From Candidatus Kapaibacterium sp. (lineage in GTDB: Bacteria > Bacteroidota > Ignavibacteria > Kapaibacteriales > UBA2268), in the NCBI GenBank assembly GCA_965140345.1, contig OZ223198.1, forward strand, positions 327,809 to 391,808: DNA of 64,000 nucleotides. The letters run 5' to 3'. Position numbers and translations under genes: made by a program. The notes beneath the pieces were generated by a model that was given only the letters and a program-made list of their open reading frames with translations, was not told where the DNA came from and did not search any database. How positions within the stretch are numbered: the stretch's first letter is position 1; each line of letters begins with the position of its first letter. This document shows positions 2,184 through 43,111 of this stretch, piece by piece.

Positions 2184-5100
2184 TACATCCTCCTTAAAGC
2201 TGCTTGCTTAGATTTGTCTATTGTTCCGGTTACTGACCTGTTATCAGCAGTCATTGTTCCGGATACTTGTACATTGATTCTAGTTTTTATATATCCTTTA
2301 AGTCTTTTTGTTTCTTTGATGTTTTCTTTTAGAAGATCTCGAGTTTTTGCATTTTCTTCTTTTAGAATTCTATTTTGTTCTCGTAGTTCAGAAATTACTT
2401 CCTTATCTCGATCATTTACCAAGGATTGTACTATGACATTTTTTTGTAGCTGAACTAACTCATCACTCTCAAATACTGCTTGATGGGATATCTCTTTTGT
2501 AATATCAGTTCTGTATTTGAAAATATAATCTTTAAGTGGAAGATTTGTTCTGTTAAGGACTTCATAATCAGCTTCATTTGTTGAAGTTGATTTGTCATTC
2601 ATTACAAACTCTTCGCCTTCTTCATTAATAGTTATGCGTTTTTGACCTCCAGGAACCTTACCACCTTTTCGGAAACCTAGACTTGATTCAGCAACAGAAA
2701 CTAACCCTAAAACAGTAGCTGTAGCTCCTGCTGCAATGACAGCTCCTAATATTGGATTTTGAGCAAATGCCTTGGCCGTAATTTCTGCGATATAAACCGG
2801 AACGAGTGATTTTAAGGCAGATATAGCTGTTTTGGCAAATGCTTTTTGGAAACTTTCACCATTAGCAATCATGCTGGCAAACATCGTCCCTGTGGTGACA
2901 CCGAAATCAGCGTACATTTCGGACTTTTCTTCTACTCTTGCAATCTCAAGATCATGTTCTTCCTGTTTTAGTTTCGCAAGATCTTCTTCTAAAGTAGACT
3001 TGAGTTTAAAATCCTTTTTAGCTATTGCGGATTCAATTTGTGATTGTTTGCTTTTTAATCTCTGATCAGTTTTTGATTGTCGAGAGGTTAGAGCAATAAG
3101 CTTTTTAGATGAGGCTTTTGCTGCAGCTAAAGATTGTTTTGACGATTCTTCCAAAGCCTTAGCGATTGCTTTGCCTACATTGTTTGAAGACTTAGCTTCT
3201 AAGTCAGCTTTTTCCTTGGCTAATTTTTCTGATTCTTTATTATGCTCAGCTTGAAGTTTTTCAAGGTTTTTGTAATAGTCTTTTACAGAGATTTCTTTTG
3301 ATTTTAGTTGATCACGAAGAGCATCCCTTTCTTTCTCAAAATTGGAAAGAGAAGCTTTCAGCTGGTCATCTTTTTCTTGTATGGCTTCAGTTTCTGAATT
3401 AGACTGAGAAAAATCAAATTGTAGTGCAGATGTAAAAATGCTAGTATTACGATACAACCTACTGGTATTTAGTAGATACTTTTTGTCTGCTTCTTCTTTT
3501 GCAAGCTGCAACTCTTCAAAAGCTTGGAACTCAAGTGCATAATTACCTCTAGCTTGATTCAGTCTATCTTCAAAGATTTTCTCTGCATTAAATAATGCTA
3601 GCTGCCTTTCTCTTTCAGCAAAATCATTGATAGATTTAATGTCTTCTTCTCGAAGTTTTTTCTTTAAATCAGAACTAATTTGTACGAGTTCTAACTCCAA
3701 ATTTTGAAGCTCAATCTTTAATTCTGCAATTCGTTTCGGATCTGACTTTGCACCTAATGCAATTTCAGTATTAAGCTCTTCTGTTAAAGTAGTTATCTGC
3801 GACTCAACTGTATTTAAGTCATATTTTAGCTTATCTGACTCAGCTTTTAGTCCAATAGAGATCTTATATTCCAATTCAGTTTTTTCCATCTGCTGATAAA
3901 TCTTCTCAGCTTCCTTTCTAGCCTGATCCTCATCTAGTTTTAGCTGAACTTTGGTTTTGAGTTCTACAAGTTGAGCCTCTTTCAATTTATTTGAATACTC
4001 TGCTACTACTTTTTGAGCTTCTTCGTAGTCCTTTTTTGTATTTGCAGATACTTTACCTTTTCTACTCTCGATATCATACTGTTTTTTAGCAATGCTGTAC
4101 AGCTCTTGGTAAGCCTTCAATTGTCTTTCTGCTTCAACAGAAGCTTTAGTAACTTCCTCAACCTTATCTTCCTGGACTTCAATTTCAGTTTTGAGTCTTC
4201 CCAGTTTTAGTATCGCTAGCTCTTCATCCAATTTTGCTTCTTTATTAGCTTCCTCAGCTATTTGGTTGTTTAACTCAAATCGTTTTTTTGCAATTGCATA
4301 TTCTGATTCTTTTGATTCTTTCTTAACTTTTGCTTTCTTTTCTTCTTGTTTAATCTCAACAGCAGTAAGGTCAATACCGGATTTCTTAAGATCATGAATA
4401 CTTTGATTTACAATTTTAGCTTCGTCATTTGCAACTTTTAGTTGTTTTTGAGCTTCATTTACTTGTTTTGTATATTCCGCCTCGTCAATTATTCCTTTGT
4501 TATAATCCAACTGAGCCTTGAGAGCTTTCTCCTTGGCTTCTTTTTGAAGAGAACCTATAGAACTTAATGTATCTCCCCAGTTTTTAGCAGCTGCATCTGT
4601 TTTTTTGGTTTCCTCAGTAATTTTCTGCTGTTCATTCTTTATTTCTGTAGCTTTTGTTCTAGCAACTCCATATTTGTCAGCTAGTTTGTCCAATGTTTCC
4701 TGACTTATTTCTCCTTTTTTACTAATCTCCTCAAGTTCTTTGGCTAGTAGCATTTTCTTTGCTTCATCCGAAGTGATATTCAACTGTTTAGCAATTTTGG
4801 ATATTGCTTTTTCTGTTAGTAAACCTGCTTTACCTCCTTTTTCAAAAGAATCTACTAGAGCTTGTTTATTCGCATTAACTGCAGAAATTTCTTCTTGGTA
4901 TTTATCAATAAGCTTTTGTTTTATTTCCGGATCATTCGCTTTGTTAATTCGTGTCTTTAAATCATCCAGATGATCTTTTTGCTTATCAATTATTCGAACT
5001 TGTTCTTCTAGCGATTTAGAATATATCTTTGCCTGTTCTGCTAATTCCGAACCTGATTTATTAGCGTTAGCAAATTCTTTAGCTTTATTTATATTGATGT

Positions 5101-10369: not shown

Positions 10370-11665
10370 TTACCCGCTTTTTTCTATGGTATGCATGTAA
10401 ATTGTACTTGCATGATATATAACTGAATTAGATAACTTGTTTTTTACCTTGAGTTCTAATTCATGTGTAAGATTATTGATATTTACATCCCAATCAAATA
10501 CATCTCCTCCATCTGCCCTTGTGTCTACTGATCCTGCATTGTAGATATGATTCCCACCAGAAGTACTTCTGATCATGATTCTTAATTCGTTCGATTGTAT
10601 TGCTGCTTGAGTAGCATCTACACCAGTGATAACTATACTTAAATTATAATCGTGGTTTGACTTCAAGTTGAAATTGACACTGCCGGCTAAGGTTAAGAAA
10701 GTGTAGTTGATATTATCGTTAGTTACTGCTTGCCACACTAATAAGGAATTTTGTCTTCTTTCAGAGAATATATTGTATCCAAATACAACCTCACCAGGAT
10801 AGTCTGTATGTAGATTCTTGCCTGCAAGATTTACTGAGTTTTTAGCAGCAATAGTATTCTCAGTACCTCCAAGCATAACTGCATATTCTGATCCAGATAC
10901 CATTACATTCCTATATCCTGCAAGATATCCTGAATAGTCACAATCGCTTTGTACTGTTATGGATCGTCCACCAGTAGCACCTACATAATTACTATTGATG
11001 GTAATTTTATATCCACCTGAAGCTGAAGAATAATCCCCATTTATTATGAGCTCAAATCCTCCAATGCCACTTGAGTTATTACCTGTAATAACATGTGAAT
11101 TCCCTAGAGCTATAGCCAAAATCCCTAAGCTTTTACATGAATTACCAAATGCAAACGCCATTTGTCCGGTAGATTGACAGTCTGAACCTATAGTAACAGA
11201 ATACTGTCCACTAGCTACATGTGCAACATTAGTTCTGTAAGTTTGTAAGTCTATTGCTCCTGCACCTCTTGGATTGCCTGAGATCGAGCCTTCGTTTTTG
11301 GCTTGAATTGATAAGTTAGAATTTTGAATAGTTCCACCAAGTAATGAACTATTTCCTGTATGATTTTCTCTGTTTAAATAATAATCTCCATTTTGGCCAT
11401 CTAACAGCTCACTATTTTCTGAATTATCAACTTTGCCATTGTTATTACTATCGTAGATAGACTTTTCCATATCCGGATAGATATATTTTGCTTCTACAGA
11501 GTTGTAATAGCCAAATTTGTTCGAAGAAGTATTGTATATAACCTGCCCCATAACAGAAACTGTAGGTTCTGTTGATGTATTGTGGATGGCGACATCCTGT
11601 ATTTGATTTTTCTTTAAATACAGATTGCCGGAAATACTTACTTCATATTCAAATCTTATTGGCAT
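10370..11665 (-). CDS. tail fibre / receptor-binding protein
   Basis: N-terminal KVDNSENSELLDGQNGDYYL resembles the conserved VDNA..LDG motif of phage tail fibres. The middle is Gly/Ser-rich with beta-helix-like repeats (SGIGGFELIINGDYSSASGGYKITINSNYVGATGG). Confidence 0.6.
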   Translation of the reverse strand: MPIRFEYEVSISGNLYLKKNQIQDVAIHNTSTEPTVSVMGQVIYNTSSNKFGYYNSVEAKYIYPDMEKSIYDSNNNGKVDNSENSELLDGQNGDYYLNRENHTGNSSLLGGTIQNSNLSIQAKNEGSISGNPRGAGAIDLQTYRTNVAHVASGQYSVTIGSDCQSTGQMAFAFGNSCKSLGILAIALGNSHVITGNNSSGIGGFELIINGDYSSASGGYKITINSNYVGATGGRSITVQSDCDYSGYLAGYRNVMVSGSEYAVMLGGTENTIAAKNSVNLAGKNLHTDYPGEVVFGYNIFSERRQNSLLVWQAVTNDNINYTFLTLAGSVNFNLKSNHDYNLSIVITGVDATQAAIQSNELRIMIRSTSGGNHIYNAGSVDTRADGGDVFDWDVNINNLTHELELKVKNKLSNSVIYHASTIYMHTIEKSG

Positions 11666-25653: not shown

Positions 25654-26207
25654 TGGATTCTGGCCTCACCGAACAAATTGAATTAGTATTTGAACAAATA
25701 AAAGATTCACTTACTCACATTGATTATTCACCTCTTTTTGGCTCAATTAGAGAGATAGTTCGCAGCTCCATAGAAGAAAATTTCAAAGTAGGAGGACGCT
25801 ACGGTGATGGATTATTTGGAGGTGGGACTAAGAAATGGGATAAAAGTAAAAGGGCTCTTAAACAAGGAGGTAGTGTACTTCAGGATTCTGGTCAGTTGGC
25901 TGCTTCAATCGAAATAGATATCATCCAAAATGCGGATGGGATATTTATTGAAATAGGTTCCAACAAGCCTTACGCAGCTGCTCACAACTTCGGTTCTAAA
26001 CATTCAGTTCCCGTAACCGATAAATCAAGATCATTTTTTAAAGCTATGTATTTAAAAACAAATGAACCACAGTGGTTAGCTATGGCTCATTCAAAAAAAG
26101 ACAAGTTTGAAATTAATCTCCTTGAGCGTCCTTATCTTGTTCTACAGGATGAGGATATTGAGGAGATTTTGGATCTAATATTAACTTTTTCCCTTCAGCA
26201 TGAATAA
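25653..26207 (+). CDS. virion morphogenesis protein (Mu gpG-like)
   Basis: LQDSGQLAASIEIDI...IEIGSNKPYAAAHNFG matches the phage virion morphogenesis (Mu G) family motif. Its 3' end is overlapped convergently by the next gene. Confidence 0.6.
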   Translation: MDSGLTEQIELVFEQIKDSLTHIDYSPLFGSIREIVRSSIEENFKVGGRYGDGLFGGGTKKWDKSKRALKQGGSVLQDSGQLAASIEIDIIQNADGIFIEIGSNKPYAAAHNFGSKHSVPVTDKSRSFFKAMYLKTNEPQWLAMAHSKKDKFEINLLERPYLVLQDEDIEEILDLILTFSLQHE

Positions 26208-27954
26208 AATTGTCTGGAATTTTTTCATAAATCAATCTCTTTAAAGTTGCTGAAAAAACTTGTTCGTGTGATGTAGAGCTATTTGCTTTTCGAAGAGTAA
26301 AAACTAAATTTATTTTATTGGATGTGTATCCATCTCCGCGTTTATATTGAGCGGTATCCATTTGATGCATAAGTTTTAGTTCAATATCAACTTTTTTTTC
26401 ACCATCTGTAAAATATTTTTCAATATCATTAATTTCTAAAGTGCTTATCTTTAAATCATCTTGATTTTTATTTAAGAACTCAACTTTCACAAAAGTCCAG
26501 TCTCGTTTAATAGAGACTGTGGAAAATTTTAAGTTCAATGTCTCATAACAGAGTACACCATCAACCATTTTTGTGGAAACAACCCACGTTTGTCCTAAAT
26601 TACATGAAACTTGAGGAAATAAACTTATATTATGTACCGATTTCCCTTTTACATAAAATTCTTCACTAGGCATCAATTGACTAGTATCGAATATTATCTT
26701 CCATTCTACTTCAAGTGGTTTATCGTTTTCATGTGTTTGTCCAGATTTATATTTTGCGTCTACAACTATATCATCTCCTTCCCACCTATGATTATAACAT
26801 TTAAACGGTTCTCCAGAAGAAATACATTTAACTTCTTTTATATTTAATTCATCATTATTTATTCTAATACCAGGCAAATTAAATCTTAAAGCAATATCGT
26901 CATGAGTTTCTAGTGCTGGCAGTTTGGTAGTGTTTGCTATTATTTTAGACCTGAAATAATCCTTTACTTTTTGAAATGAAGGCAAAATCTTAAAATTATT
27001 ACCTAATGTTAATTTACTTGTTAAAAGAAAATAAGCATCTGTGTTTTTAAAAATAACATCTCGAACAAAAGATTGGTTGTGCTTGTAAAGTATTGCTATA
27101 TTGTCATCTAAAAAGCTTGGATTTAATACAAAATCTAAACTATTATTAGTAGCAGATTTCCCTTCTGAAGTACTAGCAACATAGTAACCCTCAAATTCCT
27201 TAAACATATATAGCTTTTCTTGTTGTAGTTTTGGGTGAAGCAAATAAAATTTCAACAAATTATAATAATAATTATTAATTCGGTGAGCCTCAGAACCTAT
27301 TTCTTTATAACAATCCAACCTAAATACATTGGAAAGTAAAAAACAAGAAGCATTAGTTTTCTGTTGCTTTGCTTTATTATATTCTCCTATAATTGCATCG
27401 CTAAATAGCTTAACATCTAAATTAAACAAATTGGATAATACATTATCACATTTACTTAATATGTACCTTCCGTCTGACGTAACCAATATGTCTTTTTCGG
27501 TTAAATCCAGATTATCCAATACACCTTTACTATTTATTTTTGTATCTGTAGAACTGATAAATTTATCAATATCTTTCTGGGTATAAATACTTGAAAATAA
27601 AGTCTTAGCATTGAGTTGAATTTTGTGTTGTATAATGTCCGTTTTAAGTCTTGAGAAACTATTTGAGAATGGAATAAAATCACCAAATTCATTTATTTCC
27701 ATGTCTGATGACAAACATGACTTGCAATGATCTTTGAATGTATTATTTATAGTTTCCCCAACAGTTCGTTTACCATAATGAATGCTGTCTTTCGTTGGAA
27801 AGTTGTTTTTTATCTTTGTCTTATGTTCAGAAGTGATATAATCACTAATGTCTTGTTCAGGTACAAGCGGAAGCATCCAACTACAAGAACATATTATGTA
27901 GCTAAGACAGACTATTATTAAATATTTCATTTTCACACCTTTATTACAAATCAA
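26113..27954 (-). CDS. large lipoprotein of unknown function (613 aa), likely moron
   Basis: Signal peptide plus lipobox (MKYLIIVCLSYIICSCS). Very AT-rich. No recognisable domain. Overlaps the end of the gpG-like gene by 95 nt. Confidence 0.5.
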   Translation of the reverse strand: MICNKGVKMKYLIIVCLSYIICSCSWMLPLVPEQDISDYITSEHKTKIKNNFPTKDSIHYGKRTVGETINNTFKDHCKSCLSSDMEINEFGDFIPFSNSFSRLKTDIIQHKIQLNAKTLFSSIYTQKDIDKFISSTDTKINSKGVLDNLDLTEKDILVTSDGRYILSKCDNVLSNLFNLDVKLFSDAIIGEYNKAKQQKTNASCFLLSNVFRLDCYKEIGSEAHRINNYYYNLLKFYLLHPKLQQEKLYMFKEFEGYYVASTSEGKSATNNSLDFVLNPSFLDDNIAILYKHNQSFVRDVIFKNTDAYFLLTSKLTLGNNFKILPSFQKVKDYFRSKIIANTTKLPALETHDDIALRFNLPGIRINNDELNIKEVKCISSGEPFKCYNHRWEGDDIVVDAKYKSGQTHENDKPLEVEWKIIFDTSQLMPSEEFYVKGKSVHNISLFPQVSCNLGQTWVVSTKMVDGVLCYETLNLKFSTVSIKRDWTFVKVEFLNKNQDDLKISTLEINDIEKYFTDGEKKVDIELKLMHQMDTAQYKRGDGYTSNKINLVFTLRKANSSTSHEQVFSATLKRLIYEKIPDNFIHAEGKKLILDPKSPQYPHPVEQDKDAQGD

Positions 27955-28383: not shown

Positions 28384-29361
28384 CTATGATAGCTCTTCTC
28401 GTCTTCTAAGGAAGTAACTTATAAGCTCGTCTGGCAAGAAATTTTTCAAAGTTTGTTCGTTTTCTGTTCTAAAATATTCGTGTTTAGAATATTCTATCAA
28501 GCGAGCCAAGAAAATAATCCAATTAGAAATTTTTTCAAAACTGGTTGTTCCTGCGTGTTGCCTAAATTCCACAGAACCATGTCTCCAAAAAGCTCGGCTA
28601 TTTAATTTGTAATATCTATTTCTATGTGTAATTGAATTTTCTAGTCTTTCTAATCCGTCTTGCATCGAAGCTGTGTGGCCAACCGCATCTATCAATTCTT
28701 CAAAATTTGTTACTCTCATTGATTTACAATACCTATTGCTGGAGCCTCTTCTACTTTGTGGCATAAAAGAATCTATTAAATATTCAAGCTTAGCATAATT
28801 TTTGTACAAGTTTTTCCAAGTCTCAAGTTGAAAGTCAGAAGCATCAAAATGAATATGTAAGCCACAAGAGCGGTTTATCTTTGCACCTAAGCCTCGCAAA
28901 ATCAAGGTTACCGTTTTAAGTTGTCTCAAACCTGCCTCTCCAGTAAGTTTAGGACTAACCAATTCAAAAGTATTTGTTCCATTAAGTGAACCGTCTGTTG
29001 TGACTTTCCAATGATTTCTGGTTCGGTGATTATATCTTTCATGTTCCGTTGTGATACCTGCTGCAGTTAATTCAGTAACAAGTTCGTCTCTTGTTATTCC
29101 GAAGGCTTCAATCTCAACCCCAAAAGTGTGATTGAAAGTAAAATGTGTTAGGTTATAAGTTGCTTCTTCAACTACCTCTCTTAAGTTCCTTCTTCTTGAC
29201 CTCACCCTATCAGGATAAGATCGAGCAAAAACATTTTGTACGAAACCATAGCTACATCCCAATGCAACAGTTACTTCAGTTCTTGTTAATCCTAACTCTA
29301 GAAGTTGTTTTATTTTCCAAGTTTTGTTTTGATTTGCGTTTAAAATCTCTTGCCTTGTCAT
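28384..29361 (-). CDS. HTH domain fused to amidoligase (Amidoligase_2 / GCS2-like carboxylate-amine ligase)
   Basis: N-terminal HTH (KIKQLLELGLTRTEVTVALGCSYGFVQNVF). Ligase motifs FGVEIEAFG (G.E.E), ELVSP, GLHIHFD (H.H) and GSVEFRQHAGT (E.R) in the order seen in Amidoligase_2 / GCS2 enzymes. Confidence 0.55.
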   Translation of the reverse strand: MTRQEILNANQNKTWKIKQLLELGLTRTEVTVALGCSYGFVQNVFARSYPDRVRSRRRNLREVVEEATYNLTHFTFNHTFGVEIEAFGITRDELVTELTAAGITTEHERYNHRTRNHWKVTTDGSLNGTNTFELVSPKLTGEAGLRQLKTVTLILRGLGAKINRSCGLHIHFDASDFQLETWKNLYKNYAKLEYLIDSFMPQSRRGSSNRYCKSMRVTNFEELIDAVGHTASMQDGLERLENSITHRNRYYKLNSRAFWRHGSVEFRQHAGTTSFEKISNWIIFLARLIEYSKHEYFRTENEQTLKNFLPDELISYFLRRREELS

Positions 29362-40229: not shown

Positions 40230-40259
40230 ATATCGGTTTTCAAAGAACAATGCATCAAT

Positions 40260-40595
40260 CTAGTCTGAATTGATATCAGCTACATATCTTGAATTTTTTT
40301 GAGTTTTTTTTAGTTTCAGCATAACCTCAGCTGTAAAAAACACTGAGATTGGTTGTCCTGATTTATCAGCTTTCCCGGAAAGCTTGTCCATAAGGAGTTC
40401 AACACATTCATCCCAAAGTTGGAATGGAACTTCTGTTTCAATTTTCCCGGCTAGTTCTTCAATAGCTTTGCAAATTCCTTTTGGTATTGGATCAGCAGTC
40501 ATTTTCTTCAGCTCCATCAATGTCGGACAAAGTTGAGTAATAGACCTGTTGTTCTTTGATGCTTCTTCCTTGCTCTTCGATAAAAATGTTTCCAT
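40260..40595 (-). CDS. hypothetical protein (start uncertain; may be fused with the overlapping upstream ORF)
   Basis: The 111-aa ORF overlaps 40492..40779 in a different frame. Confidence 0.35.
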   Translation of the reverse strand: METFLSKSKEEASKNNRSITQLCPTLMELKKMTADPIPKGICKAIEELAGKIETEVPFQLWDECVELLMDKLSGKADKSGQPISVFFTAEVMLKLKKTQKNSRYVADINSD

Positions 40596-40779
40596 CCATC
40601 ATTGCTCTAAAGGCACCTATTGACTTTTTCATTCTAGTAAGCTGAGCTGTTTCTTTGGATGTAAGTCCGTAATGCTTGCTTACTAAAAGAAGAAGCTGAT
40701 TCATATCTGCATTCAAGCGTTTTGTTAGTCTTGCAGCTTCTAAATGTTTTTCGTATCCAAAATTTTTCTTGCCAGTCAT
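40492..40779 (-). CDS. hypothetical protein (95 aa)
   Basis: ORF track. Overlaps the downstream ORF by 104 nt. Confidence 0.35.
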   Translation of the reverse strand: MTGKKNFGYEKHLEAARLTKRLNADMNQLLLLVSKHYGLTSKETAQLTRMKKSIGAFRAMMDGNIFIEEQGRSIKEQQVYYSTLSDIDGAEENDC

Positions 40780-40852
40780 TGGATTTTCTCGTATATTTTA
40801 TTTGACATAATGTTTCTTTAGCCTGTTCTATGTGCGAGTGGAGCAGGCTAAT

Positions 40853-41041
40853 CTAATTTTTAGAGTCGAATTCCTGCGAATAATAGGATCTTATTAGATC
40901 TCTCACATATGAAGTCCGTGTTTTATAATTGTATTTCTTCATTACAGCATCCAGTTTTTGCATATCTTCGGAATCTAGCTTCAAATGGATCGAACCTTCT
41001 TCATTTGATTTTCCAAGTTTTTTATCAAGTTTGGGTAACAT
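40853..41041 (-). CDS. small regulatory protein (ribbon-helix-helix-like, tentative)
   Basis: 62 aa, basic. Sits in the lysogeny-control region with direct repeats immediately upstream. Confidence 0.35.
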   Translation of the reverse strand: MLPKLDKKLGKSNEEGSIHLKLDSEDMQKLDAVMKKYNYKTRTSYVRDLIRSYYSQEFDSKN

Positions 41042-41053
41042 TTATAAAAACCG

Positions 41054-41121
41054 TTTGTATGTGTTATAAAAAATGTATATATTTTTGTATGTTTTTATGT
41101 ACTTATTTTTGTATGTTTTTT
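41054..41121. promoter_or_regulatory. operator-like direct repeats (TATTTTTGTATGTTTTT x2, plus a third TTTGTATGT)
   Basis: TTTGTATGT occurs at 41054, 41084 and 41108. The two longer copies share about 17 bp. Located in the promoter region of the 62-aa gene. Confidence 0.4.
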
Positions 41122-41132
41122 ATGCATTTGTT

Positions 41133-41339
41133 TTATGAGTTTATCATATCTAAAAACTTTGAAGGATTTGACTTGAAGACTTTGTAGGCAACTTTGATGG
41201 CATTCCTTGCTGCAATTGCTGCTTTGTCATAGCTGTAATGAGTCGTGATTTCTCGAATTAACAATGCATCTTCTTCAGGAAATTGCACAAATAGCCTTTT
41301 ATTAGGCATGTGTGTAGATTGATTACGTTGCGGTTGCAT
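41133..41339 (-). CDS. small regulatory protein (tentative)
   Basis: 68 aa. Divergent from the plus-strand HTH gene. Confidence 0.35.
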   Translation of the reverse strand: MQPQRNQSTHMPNKRLFVQFPEEDALLIREITTHYSYDKAAIAARNAIKVAYKVFKSNPSKFLDMINS

Positions 41340-41384
41340 AATATACCTATAAAAATATGTTTAATATGTTTCTGTTGTTGTTGA

Positions 41385-41828
41385 ATGCAATATAAAATAT
41401 TGTTTTATACAATGCAAATTATTTTTACAAATATTCAAAAATATTTTATGACACAGTTCGAAAGATTAGAAAAAGTGGCTAAGTTGCATTTTGGCTCATT
41501 AGCTGGTGTGGCTAGATTGTTAGATAAAAAACCTCAATCATTTTATTCTTATAAAAGCAGAGATAAATTTGGTGAATTACTAATTCTACAATTGGCTGAG
41601 ATTGGTATAAACCCCAAATATATCACTGATGGCGAAGAACCGATGCTTCTCGAAAGCAATAAATCTCCAAAGAAGAAACCCGAACCGAATGTAGCATCAG
41701 TAGACTATGTAGAAATGATAGAGCTTCCTGACATAACAAAGATGAGCCCGGAACAGATGCGCAAATGGCGGGAAGCAGCTTTAAAAACGATTGATAAAAT
41801 AGATAAGATTTTGGAGGTTTTGGGGTGA
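41385..41828 (+). CDS. HTH transcriptional regulator (cI/Cro-like); likely start at ATG 41448
   Basis: LEKVAKLHFGSLAGVARLLDKKPQSFYSY is an XRE-type HTH. Divergent from the minus-strand regulatory genes. Its stop overlaps the next start. Confidence 0.5.
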   Translation: MQYKILFYTMQIIFTNIQKYFMTQFERLEKVAKLHFGSLAGVARLLDKKPQSFYSYKSRDKFGELLILQLAEIGINPKYITDGEEPMLLESNKSPKKKPEPNVASVDYVEMIELPDITKMSPEQMRKWREAALKTIDKIDKILEVLG

Positions 41829-42688
41829 GTAAAAAAACATTAGAATCAGATGGAATGAATTATGTTAGCATTGAGTTCGTTTGCCCAATATGCAATTATA
41901 AGAATATTGAGTCTTATATAAACATTCCAGCTGCTAAAACAATTGATGGGGGGACATCGCAAAATTTTACTGAAATGCTTTGTTCTAATTGCTTATCTTG
42001 TTACGGAATCAATATTATTTTATCTGAACATGGTGAAACTATTTTAGATATTGATCCTGATGTCGAAGGGCTCACAATTCTTGCTTATCACAGTGATATT
42101 ATCAATACATTTAGTAAAACCAATCAAACTTCAAGAATCTTTATCTATGAAGATTCTATAGAAAATCTGGAAAAGTTGAAAGAAATTGCTAATGTTACTT
42201 TGGAAGATGAATTAAATTTCGTGATTCTTCAGATGACTTTTGCACAATCCTTGACAACTCTTGAAAGTTATCTGTATAAGACTATCTCCTATAATATTAA
42301 CAGTCATGCTGTATTTCTTAAACGATTTGTTGCATCATATCAGTTCCCAAATAACAATCAACACAAGCTTAGCTTTAACAAAATATTTGAAGCGCAGAAA
42401 TGGATGCAGGGCATAATTGATGGCTTGCTTCAGAACCAGATATATCATAGACTTGATCAAGTCAACAAATTGTATGAGGCAGCTTTTGGCTTTAAACTTC
42501 CTGAGTATAGCAAAATTGACGACATCATCAAACTAAGACATGATATAGTCCATCGTAATGGAGAAACTAAAGACGGAGAAAAGATCAATATCACTCCGGA
42601 TGAACTCAAATCAGCAATAGACAGCATAGAAGAATTCATTAAGGCCACTGAAGTAAAGGTGCAGAAAGCTGTTAAAGATCTAGCATAA
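41825..42688 (+). CDS. zinc-ribbon protein with C-terminal HEPN-like R-x4-H motif (candidate toxin/abortive-infection effector)
   Basis: N-terminal CPICNYKN...CSNCLSC (4 Cys). C-terminal KLRHDIVHRNG fits an Rx4H motif. Translationally coupled to the HTH regulator. Confidence 0.4.
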   Translation: MSKKTLESDGMNYVSIEFVCPICNYKNIESYINIPAAKTIDGGTSQNFTEMLCSNCLSCYGINIILSEHGETILDIDPDVEGLTILAYHSDIINTFSKTNQTSRIFIYEDSIENLEKLKEIANVTLEDELNFVILQMTFAQSLTTLESYLYKTISYNINSHAVFLKRFVASYQFPNNNQHKLSFNKIFEAQKWMQGIIDGLLQNQIYHRLDQVNKLYEAAFGFKLPEYSKIDDIIKLRHDIVHRNGETKDGEKINITPDELKSAIDSIEEFIKATEVKVQKAVKDLA

Positions 42689-42856
42689 GATAACTTATTA
42701 GAAATTGTCAACTCGTTTAGATTAGCTCTATCTTAAATTTATAGTTAATACTATCCCTCTACTTGCAAAATATACTTGCAAATTCTTTCTAAAATACCTA
42801 ATATTATAAAAATGAACATGATATTATAAATTCTTGTCACAACTGACAAGAATTTA

Positions 42857-43111
42857 TTGCTGTTTTGGACAATTATTATATCATCCACTTTGATAAGGCA
42901 TAAAACTTTGAAATATCTAAAAACTTTACTTTTAGTCCTTTTGTTCGGTATAATTAGCTTTTCTTGTGAAAGTAGCACATCAAATGAAGACAATTCAAAT
43001 AATGTCAAAACAGGGACAACATCTACTCAGTGCTTAGGGATAACTGAAGATGGAACACGGTGTGAGCGCAAAACCACAGATCCTAGTGGTTACTGTTGGC
43101 AACATAAATAG
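42857..43111 (+). CDS. small lipoprotein with C-terminal Cys/His tail motif (...C-x6-C-x-R-x-T-x-DPSGYCWQHK)
   Basis: Lipoprotein signal (LLFGIISFSC), an S/T/N-rich linker, and a terminal CLGITEDGTRCERKTTDPSGYCWQHK nearly identical to the C-terminus of the nuclease at 44184..45125. Confidence 0.55.
   Translation: MLFWTIIISSTLIRHKTLKYLKTLLLVLLFGIISFSCESSTSNEDNSNNVKTGTTSTQCLGITEDGTRCERKTTDPSGYCWQHK

Follow-up and report, generated by a model that had tools for sequence, protein, structure and literature searches.

A divergent protein with a predicted zinc ribbon and a RiboL-PSP-type HEPN domain, encoded behind a putative prophage repressor gene, as a candidate abortive-infection RNase in Candidatus Kapaibacterium

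Within a 64,000-nucleotide stretch of DNA from Candidatus Kapaibacterium sp. (contig OZ223198.1, positions 327,809 to 391,808; hereafter the window), two overlapping genes between positions 41385 and 42688 lie at the presumed lysogeny switch of a prophage, the first occupying the position of the repressor gene and the second encoding a protein of 287 residues. The latter appears from its sequence to be a divergent member of a HEPN family, its interest lying mainly in being a representative of a widespread candidate single-gene defence in Bacteroidota. On balance we lean, by a modest degree, towards this protein being a stand-alone abortive-infection or exclusion RNase that is carried as prophage cargo and expressed together with the gene in the repressor position.

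The assignment of the C-terminal domain to the RiboL-PSP family of HEPN domains is supported both by sequence comparison and by the predicted structure. The Pfam family PF18735 (HEPN_RiboL-PSP) covers residues 109-276 with an E value of 1.9e-10 (41.4 bits against a gathering cut-off of 28.4) and is matched over positions 4-186 of its 191-position profile; the same assignment is precomputed for many relatives of the protein, and PHROG 29321, a family of unknown function, matches it at 6e-11. When 1.84 billion cluster representatives, with clusters formed at 50% identity, were searched exhaustively with HMMER, 1311 relatives reached E<=1e-3 and 392 of them E<=1e-10, and because of these 1311 relatives the open reading frame (ORF) is, by this measure, a real gene and not a chance ORF. 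The closest non-identical relative in the exhaustive search is only ~29% identical.

Three short motifs stand out in the 287-residue protein, namely CPIC (residues 20-23), CSNC (residues 53-56) and KLRHDIVHRNG (residues 236-246). The last of these had been read in the original prediction as the Rx4-6H signature of HEPN RNases, a reading that holds, as the Pfam match lies above its cut-off, the motif is invariant among homologues and the predicted topology fits. In an alignment of 12 sequences the invariant positions are T144, E147, H208, R238, H239, I241, V242, H243, R244, N245 and G246, and in the larger alignment of 97 relatives they are E147, H208, R238, H239, H243 and R244. R238 and H243 are also invariant in a further alignment (A2), and the wider pattern RH[DHN]x[VIA]HR is carried by 142 of 149 unselected representatives from the exhaustive search, 148 of which have an Rx4H motif in their C-terminal part. 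Conservation of the motif, which had been named as a check on the original prediction, is thus borne out by R238 and H243 across the 97 relatives.

A view of the domain is provided by an AlphaFold model built from the 97-sequence alignment (m05ee974f6022; mean predicted local distance difference test score of 82.7, with 85-97 in the core), which replaced an earlier model from the 12-sequence alignment in which only the C-terminal half was confident and the N terminus was left unmodelled. Helices are predicted at residues 104-122, 128-160 (carrying E147), 229-243 (with R238-H243 at its C-terminal end) and, after a loop, 258-286, while an insert of three helices occupies residues 162-221, with H208 in a short loop between the last two; residues 92-101 form a low-confidence linker. 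According to the published definition of the HEPN core (Anantharaman et al. 2013, PMC3710099), helix 3 of its four helices ends in the Rx4-6H motif, helix 2 carries a conserved acidic residue, and inserts of variable kind separate these two helices. Compared by the order of secondary-structure elements only, the model agrees with this definition in the positions of the motif, the acidic residue and the insert, so that the four-helix HEPN topology that had been put forward as a second check is present in the model.

Fold searches add comparatively little to this picture. Foldseek comparison of both models with the Protein Data Bank (PDB) gave no significant match and returned mostly generic helical bundles, the only coherent hits being MNT-associated HEPN toxins at E values of 0.2-0.7, and we do not count this result as evidence either way. 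Among the predicted viral structures of BFVD, three phage proteins match the model with a probability of 1.00, one of which is annotated as a MAE-28990/MAE-18760-like HEPN protein (template modelling score of 0.58, normalised to the target). The same search also matched uncharacterised proteins of ~145-153 residues from the Pseudomonas jumbo phages KTN4, 201phi2-1, Phabio and Psa21 over 84-102 model columns with probabilities of 0.94-1.00.

The N-terminal domain is predicted to be a zinc ribbon that is conserved within a subfamily, an assignment supported by sequence and model alike. C20, C23, C53 and C56 are at least 90% conserved in the 97-sequence alignment (A5), they are invariant in alignment A2, whose sequences were picked for having Cys pairs, and two CxxC pairs separated by 25-45 residues are found near the N terminus of 66 of the 149 unselected representatives. 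In the predicted model the CxxC pairs sit at the hairpin turns between strands 13-19 and 26-33 and between strands 45-52 and 59-66, which is the arrangement of a zinc ribbon. A profile of the domain searched against the PDB gave marginal matches (E values of 0.014-0.5), nearly all of which are classical zinc ribbons, namely TFIIE-alpha, eL42, RPA12, Rpb9 and RpoP. The four-Cys ribbon that had been proposed from the sequence is consistent with all three observations. The combination of ribbon and HEPN domain in ~285 residues recurs as a subfamily, while other relatives bear different N termini, including Vibrio proteins without the Cys residues and a HEPN/Toprim-associated fusion. In most ribbon-type relatives, moreover, the sequence 'VPSPDFSAETxxDS' is conserved between the knuckles, and the linker that leads to the HEPN domain is strongly acidic and rich in Glu, Asp and Tyr (alignment A8).

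The layout of the two genes is shown by the ORF list and the sequence, which confirm two frames on the plus strand, 41385..41828 (147 residues in its longest form) and 41825..42688, and with them the statement that the gene called helix-turn-helix (HTH) overlaps the 287-residue frame at 41825/41828, in the same orientation, at the lysogeny switch. The start codon of the HEPN gene is a GTG (41825-41827) that shares the four nucleotides GTGA with the upstream stop codon TGA (41826-41828), and this start is supported because the register of the first Cys, at about position 20, agrees with the family consensus. Together with the GGAGG element inside the upstream gene, the overlap is compatible with translational coupling of the two genes, as far as the layout allows this to be judged. 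The start of the upstream gene is most likely the ATG at 41448, giving a protein of 126 residues, because that ATG, with the sequence preceding it, is kept at the sole homologous locus (L005, described below), while the ATG at 41385 is not. Beyond the HEPN gene lies a hairpin with a U-rich tail that is likely, or at least plausible, as the terminator of a two-gene transcript; the 201-nucleotide region around it has a folding z score of -3.4, and its minimum-free-energy structure contains the hairpin. A scan of Rfam for an RNA antitoxin or small RNA gave only a sub-threshold match to the Bacteroides small RNA BTnc201 on the minus strand (42816-42899), which overlaps this hairpin and is probably due to chance (23.9 bits where the gathering score is 105; E=0.3).

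A comparison can be made with L005, the only locus in which a homologue of the upstream gene occurs. A Por_Secre_tail protein encoded in the same genome points to Bacteroidota. The two loci share the switch module (40255-41825 in the window) at ~74% DNA identity, and the similarity stops exactly at the stop codon of the upstream gene, with no HEPN gene in L005. Instead, immediately behind that stop codon, at 10424-11639 of the locus, a hairpin terminator (AAAGCCACTT-TTAA-GTGGCTTT) is followed by a convergent gene for a 360-residue protein with nuclease-type domains (HSDR_N/HSDR_N_2). Host synteny resumes farther on, where an S24 peptidase gene and its neighbours correspond to 52.7-55.9 kb of the window. 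Because the homology ends at the upstream stop codon and other genes follow, the HEPN gene is, by this comparison, a replaceable insert (cargo, or 'moron') grafted behind the gene in the repressor position. The comparison further suggests that the slot behind this gene is a variable cargo hotspot, filled by the HEPN gene in the window and by the nuclease-domain gene in L005. Neither GC content nor GC content at third codon positions sets the HEPN gene apart from phage or host genes.

The nature of the upstream gene is less clear than its position. It had been described as an XRE-type HTH regulator, a designation that our searches do not uphold: no significant HTH family was found in Pfam, NCBIfam or PHROGs, nor by alignment to authentic repressors. 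Pfam, searched with the full-length protein and with its N-terminal 69 residues, gave no HTH family and a best match to Terminase_5 below the cut-off (E values of 0.03-0.07), NCBIfam returned nothing, and hits to PHROG repressor families (E values of 0.013-0.08) were not reproduced with the homologue or with the N-terminal segment. An hhalign comparison with the authentic CI repressors of lambda and 186 gave a probability below 1%, and neither PDB sequence searches, phmmer included, nor a phage-genome search found a match. By eye, residues 4-65 recall the helix pattern of CI-type domains, an impression that the profile searches do not confirm. The protein is nearly an orphan, with a sole homologue (P0168, 73% identity) among 5.8 billion proteins. 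Its gene is divergent from two small ribbon-helix-helix (RHH)-like genes heading an early operon that includes exonuclease, D5-type primase and helicase genes. The 62-residue product of one matches phrog_876 ('transcriptional repressor') at E=3e-4, and the 68-residue product of the other has no family match in Pfam or PHROGs and is possibly a Cro-like regulator, as judged from the position of its gene. The control region between the divergent genes contains several imperfect inverted repeats of 15-20 nucleotides, for example 41348-41367/41390-41409 and 41392-41409/41432-41449, and is putatively operator-bearing. At 41073-41137, between the 62-residue RHH gene and the 68-residue gene, there are two to five tandem copies of a 12/24-nucleotide unit, ATGTAYWTATTTTTGTATGTTTTT, which may be regulator-binding iterons.

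Such a pair of overlapping genes invites the idea of a type II toxin-antitoxin module; the 126-residue protein would then be the antitoxin, neutralising the HEPN toxin and, by binding DNA, regulating its own operon. A 4-nucleotide overlap and the antitoxin-first order are typical of these modules, HEPN domains are common as their toxins, and the MNT-HEPN structures were the only coherent PDB hits. However, the upstream gene stands alone in L005, where it has a terminator of its own and the HEPN gene is absent, nothing comparable precedes any relative in the 33 viral and 80 genomic loci, and the single homologue of the upstream protein contrasts with the more than 1300 clusters of the HEPN family. 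We consider this explanation very unlikely. The same observations go against the two genes being a conserved cassette, as the original prediction had treated them, since the upstream gene occurs without the HEPN gene and relatives of the HEPN gene occur without such a partner.

The neighbourhoods of the relatives are heterogeneous and reveal no fixed partner gene, SIR2, AbiEii, AbiTii and STAND-like genes being among the adjacent ones. In the 33 viral loci there is no HTH partner upstream of the HEPN relative, and the upstream neighbours include genes for SegE-type GIY-YIG proteins, a Ref nuclease, a SRAP peptidase, an FRG protein, Mu gp45, antiterminator Q and AbiTii. The 80 genomic loci come from many phyla, with the full-length ribbon-type matches mostly in Bacteroidota and some in Firmicutes, and the 63 upstream neighbours scanned among them include AbiEii (four times) as well as DndE, SIR2_2 and T5orf172 (twice each). 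We checked the upstream genes of ten ribbon-type genomic loci individually. SIR2_2 genes precede the HEPN gene with a 23-nucleotide overlap in L041 (2024-3280) and at a distance of 7 nucleotides in L048 (1359-2663), genes for AbiEii nucleotidyltransferases lie 1 nucleotide upstream in L069 (803-1762) and 35 nucleotides upstream in L065 (2865-3935). L080 (804-1874) was compared by length and spacing, in both of which its upstream gene equals that of L065. These SIR2_2- or AbiEii-linked loci may be two-gene defence systems that recall pairs of nucleotidyltransferase and HEPN proteins. Further upstream genes in this set encode an AAA_35-TPR ATPase and TraQ of a conjugative transposon, and one ribbon-type relative stands alone in a polysaccharide locus. 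In a viral contig (L035), an AbiTii-domain gene (PF18864, E=8e-38; 3035-3943), tentatively placed there because the Pfam scan gives counts only, appears to lie 18 nucleotides upstream of a ribbon-type HEPN gene, an adjacency paralleled by the AbiTii-HEPN fusions noted by Anantharaman et al. (PMC3710099). Relatives of the non-ribbon kind in L003 and L004, from Vibrio vulnificus and another Vibrio assembly, share the RHDIVHRNG sequence and lie amid many short ORFs and acetyltransferase genes, a setting typical of chromosomal superintegron cassettes. A distribution of this kind is expected of a portable, self-sufficient conflict gene and not of one half of an obligate pair.

Two further explanations have to be set against these neighbourhoods. 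The first is that the HEPN protein serves the cycle of the phage itself, for instance in the processing of the immunity transcript, in the breakdown of host RNA once the prophage is induced, or in keeping the prophage stable. In its favour, the gene lies in the immunity region, presumably in the same transcription unit as the switch gene, and members of the family are also known from records of phages that seem to be virulent or non-integrated, Pseudomonas phage LKA5 among them. Nevertheless, the related switch module of L005 does without the HEPN gene, and the relatives are scattered, being found at unrelated positions in phages, in integron cassettes, in a conjugative transposon and in defence islands, which fits portable conflict genes rather than a core phage function; we regard such a role as unlikely. 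The second, which we hold to be rather improbable, is that the protein takes part in a conflict other than phage defence, with plasmids or conjugative elements, or that it needs an unlinked partner such as a nucleotidyltransferase or SIR2 protein and is inactive here. The tight linkage of some ribbon-type relatives to SIR2_2 or AbiEii genes and the position of one beside TraQ speak for this possibility, while every catalytic and Cys residue is intact in the 287-residue protein, many relatives are solitary and no nucleotidyltransferase or SIR2 gene lies nearby in the window.

Returning to an RNase that aborts or excludes infection, the kind of effector to which the original prediction had pointed and which our results support as likely, we tentatively propose the following mechanism. 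Because the HEPN gene is joined by a 4-nucleotide overlap to the gene in the repressor position, the maintenance transcript would probably supply its product at all times in the lysogen, in the way that rexA and rexB are expressed with cI in phage lambda. The product would be a single-chain sensor-effector, with the zinc-ribbon-like domain at its N terminus and the RiboL-PSP HEPN domain at its C terminus. By analogy to characterised HEPN enzymes, dimerisation would be expected to bring two R238-x4-H243 motifs together into one RNase centre with E147, H208, H239 and R244. The protein may remain latent until a cue of infection is sensed, presumably via the ribbon domain, which is the obvious candidate sensor. 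Once activated, it might cut host or phage RNA, whether mRNA or tRNA, so that the superinfecting phage is aborted or excluded.

The genomic context of the relatives lends support to this putative anti-phage role, through their defence-type neighbours and through an enrichment near prophage ends: of 27 relatives in viral contigs no shorter than 25 kb, 13 are at most 4 kb away from an end of their contig where 5.2 are expected (binomial p=6e-4), a count that includes phages related to one another and depends on predicted prophage borders that are imprecise. That imprecision weighs against the proposal, and so do several other points. The 287-residue protein is an atypical member of the ribbon subfamily, since the 'SPDF' segment after the conserved Pro35 is missing (a 4-residue deletion) and there is no acidic linker (41825-42124 compared with alignment A8), and its sensing properties may differ. 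PADLOC 2.0 has no model that matches the protein, its sole hit being RTasHEPN at E=0.035, and none of the 97 relatives match Abi, ApeA or PD-T models, for which only marginal hits to RTasHEPN, Cas13d and Csx1 were obtained. A literature search found no experimental study of the RiboL-PSP-HEPN family. Co-transcription of the upstream and HEPN genes is deduced from their layout, it is its position that suggests the upstream gene to be the prophage repressor, and the right border of the prophage is approximate, not being fixed by attachment (att) repeats.

A broader reading of the family can also be ventured, to which we give somewhat less than even credence. Proteins of ~285 residues that combine a zinc ribbon with a RiboL-PSP HEPN domain, common in Bacteroidota including gut taxa, may be uncatalogued, widespread, single-gene anti-phage sensor-effectors in which the ribbon senses a cue and releases the RNase. 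The copy described here would then be a divergent one, without the 'SPDF' segment and the acidic linker, that the prophage expresses from its repressor transcript as an exclusion function linked to immunity.

Table 1 Features of the two-gene locus and the adjoining switch region (coordinates within the window)
Feature	Coordinates	Strand	Details
RHH-like gene of the leftward early operon, 62 aa	40853..41041	-	Weak Pfam hits to RHH_1/RHH_8; conserved in L005
Leading gene of the leftward early operon, transcribed away from the upstream gene, 68 aa	41133..41339	-	ORF list; ~73% protein identity to the L005 counterpart (tblastx)
AT-rich divergent control region, presumed lysogeny switch, 108 bp	41340..41447		Strongly conserved with L005
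Upstream gene, putative prophage repressor-like regulator, 126 aa	41448..41828	+	Longest ORF from 41385
GGAGG, Shine-Dalgarno-like element	41813..41817	+	Inside the upstream gene, 7 nt before the GTG of the HEPN gene; read from the sequence
Gene for the zinc-ribbon and RiboL-PSP-type HEPN protein, 287 aa	41825..42688	+	PF18735 match, relatives, structural model
Beta-rich zinc-ribbon-like domain, aa 4-89	41834..42091	+	CxxC knuckles at nt 41882-41893 (C20, C23) and 41981-41992 (C53, C56)
HEPN domain, aa 104-287	42134..42685	+	E147 at nt 42263-42265, H208 at nt 42446-42448, plus the Rx4H motif
Catalytic signature RHDIVHRNG (R238-x4-H243)	42536..42562	+	Conservation among relatives
Hairpin with 14-bp stem, then U-rich tail	42826..42867	+	Terminator scan; 140 nt past the stop codon of the HEPN gene

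The wider surroundings place the locus at the right edge of the prophage. Positions 1 to ~42,700 encode a tailed phage, with genes for terminase, portal, protease, primase, helicase, exonuclease and methyltransferase/ParB proteins, and from 43,129 on there follow genes of lower GC content, among them those for a K+ channel and a non-specific endonuclease. No tRNA gene was found, and a search for att repeats flanking the prophage gave just chance matches of 13-15 nucleotides; the left end probably lies outside the window. With a repressor-like gene reading towards the near end, a Mu-like transposable prophage was also entertained and was rejected, as the large early gene encodes a D5-type primase and not a transposase. 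Elsewhere in the prophage, an ORF for a 613-residue protein (26113-27954, minus strand) has the lowest GC content of the prophage (0.29) and no PHROG hit, and adjoins an amidoligase-like gene on the same strand (28384-29361; phrog_2443, E=1.6e-56); this area may be a further cargo region. Beyond the HEPN gene, a lipoprotein-like ORF of 84 residues (42857-43111, plus strand) and the endonuclease gene (PF01223; 44184-45125, plus strand) share a near-identical Cys-rich tail, C-x7-C-xRxTxDPSGYCWQHK, which may be a C-terminal module for zinc binding or sorting.

Should the protein prove to cut RNA in defence against phages, a large HEPN family of more than 1300 clusters at 50% identity, so far defined only computationally, would gain its first function; the protein and would add a compact single-gene defence for Bacteroidota, which are less explored than E. 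coli with regard to defence and prophage exclusion. The cargo slot behind the repressor gene could likewise be mined for more candidates. HEPN abortive-infection genes and repressor-linked defence genes are already known themes, and conceptually nothing new is added to them.

The family to which the protein belongs, RiboL-PSP-HEPN ('Ribo L-PSP-HEPN'), was defined computationally in 2013 by its conserved Rx4-6H motif, its fusions to endoRNase L-PSP and its occurrence in ParB operons; it was predicted to target mRNA and is distantly related to AbiF/AbiD (PMC3710099). The 287-residue protein scores above the gathering cut-off of this family and carries its RHDxVHRNG signature, although the 2013 description includes neither an N-terminal zinc ribbon nor a position behind a prophage repressor (PMC3710099). 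The earlier view that the protein corresponds to no named Abi family stands insofar as no Abi or defence model of PADLOC matches it, and needs amending insofar as it belongs to a named HEPN family. PF18735 is given in a 2023 review as the HEPN domain of PD-T4-2, PD-T4-5, PD-T7-3 and ApeA; because neither the protein nor its 97 relatives match the PADLOC models of those systems, we take the kinship to be at the level of the superfamily only. As in the lactococcal AbiD, AbiD1 and AbiF proteins and PD-T4-5 of E. coli, we are dealing with a stand-alone HEPN protein of a mobile element for which RNase-based abortive infection would be expected, but there is no PADLOC match, and the protein, known from sequence alone, has a different N-terminal domain.

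Comparison with better characterised systems shows individual features in common with each. MNT-HEPN type VII toxin-antitoxin systems (e.g., PDB 7ae8) have the HEPN fold with an Rx4H centre, whereas the 287-residue protein is about twice as long as these toxins, has the ribbon as an extra domain and lacks a nucleotidyltransferase partner in the window. The gp57r protein of mycobacteriophage Butters, a constitutively expressed product of a prophage that blocks heterotypic phages, is likewise prophage-encoded, stand-alone and equipped with an Rx4-6H motif, but it is unrelated in sequence, has no zinc ribbon and is encoded at another position in the genome. The cI-rexA-rexB operon of lambda is similar in its arrangement, in that the repressor gene is followed directly, in the same direction, by genes for exclusion or abortive infection, and the early lytic operon is divergent from both. 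Unlike a nuclease, lambda Rex is a two-protein system that depolarises the membrane; the sequences are unrelated, and the upstream gene described here is only a putative repressor. Perhaps the best mechanistic analogue is DARNA (PD-T7-3), a stand-alone protein with a HEPN domain and a sensor that is activated only by infection and cleaves tRNA anticodon loops when the single-stranded DNA-binding protein of the phage presents single-stranded DNA. While the order of its domains is reversed, with the HEPN domain at the N terminus (R117x4H122) and an unrelated sensor at the C terminus, and its sequence does not match that of the 287-residue protein, both combine a HEPN RNase and a sensor domain within one polypeptide, each of the two being predicted in the present case.

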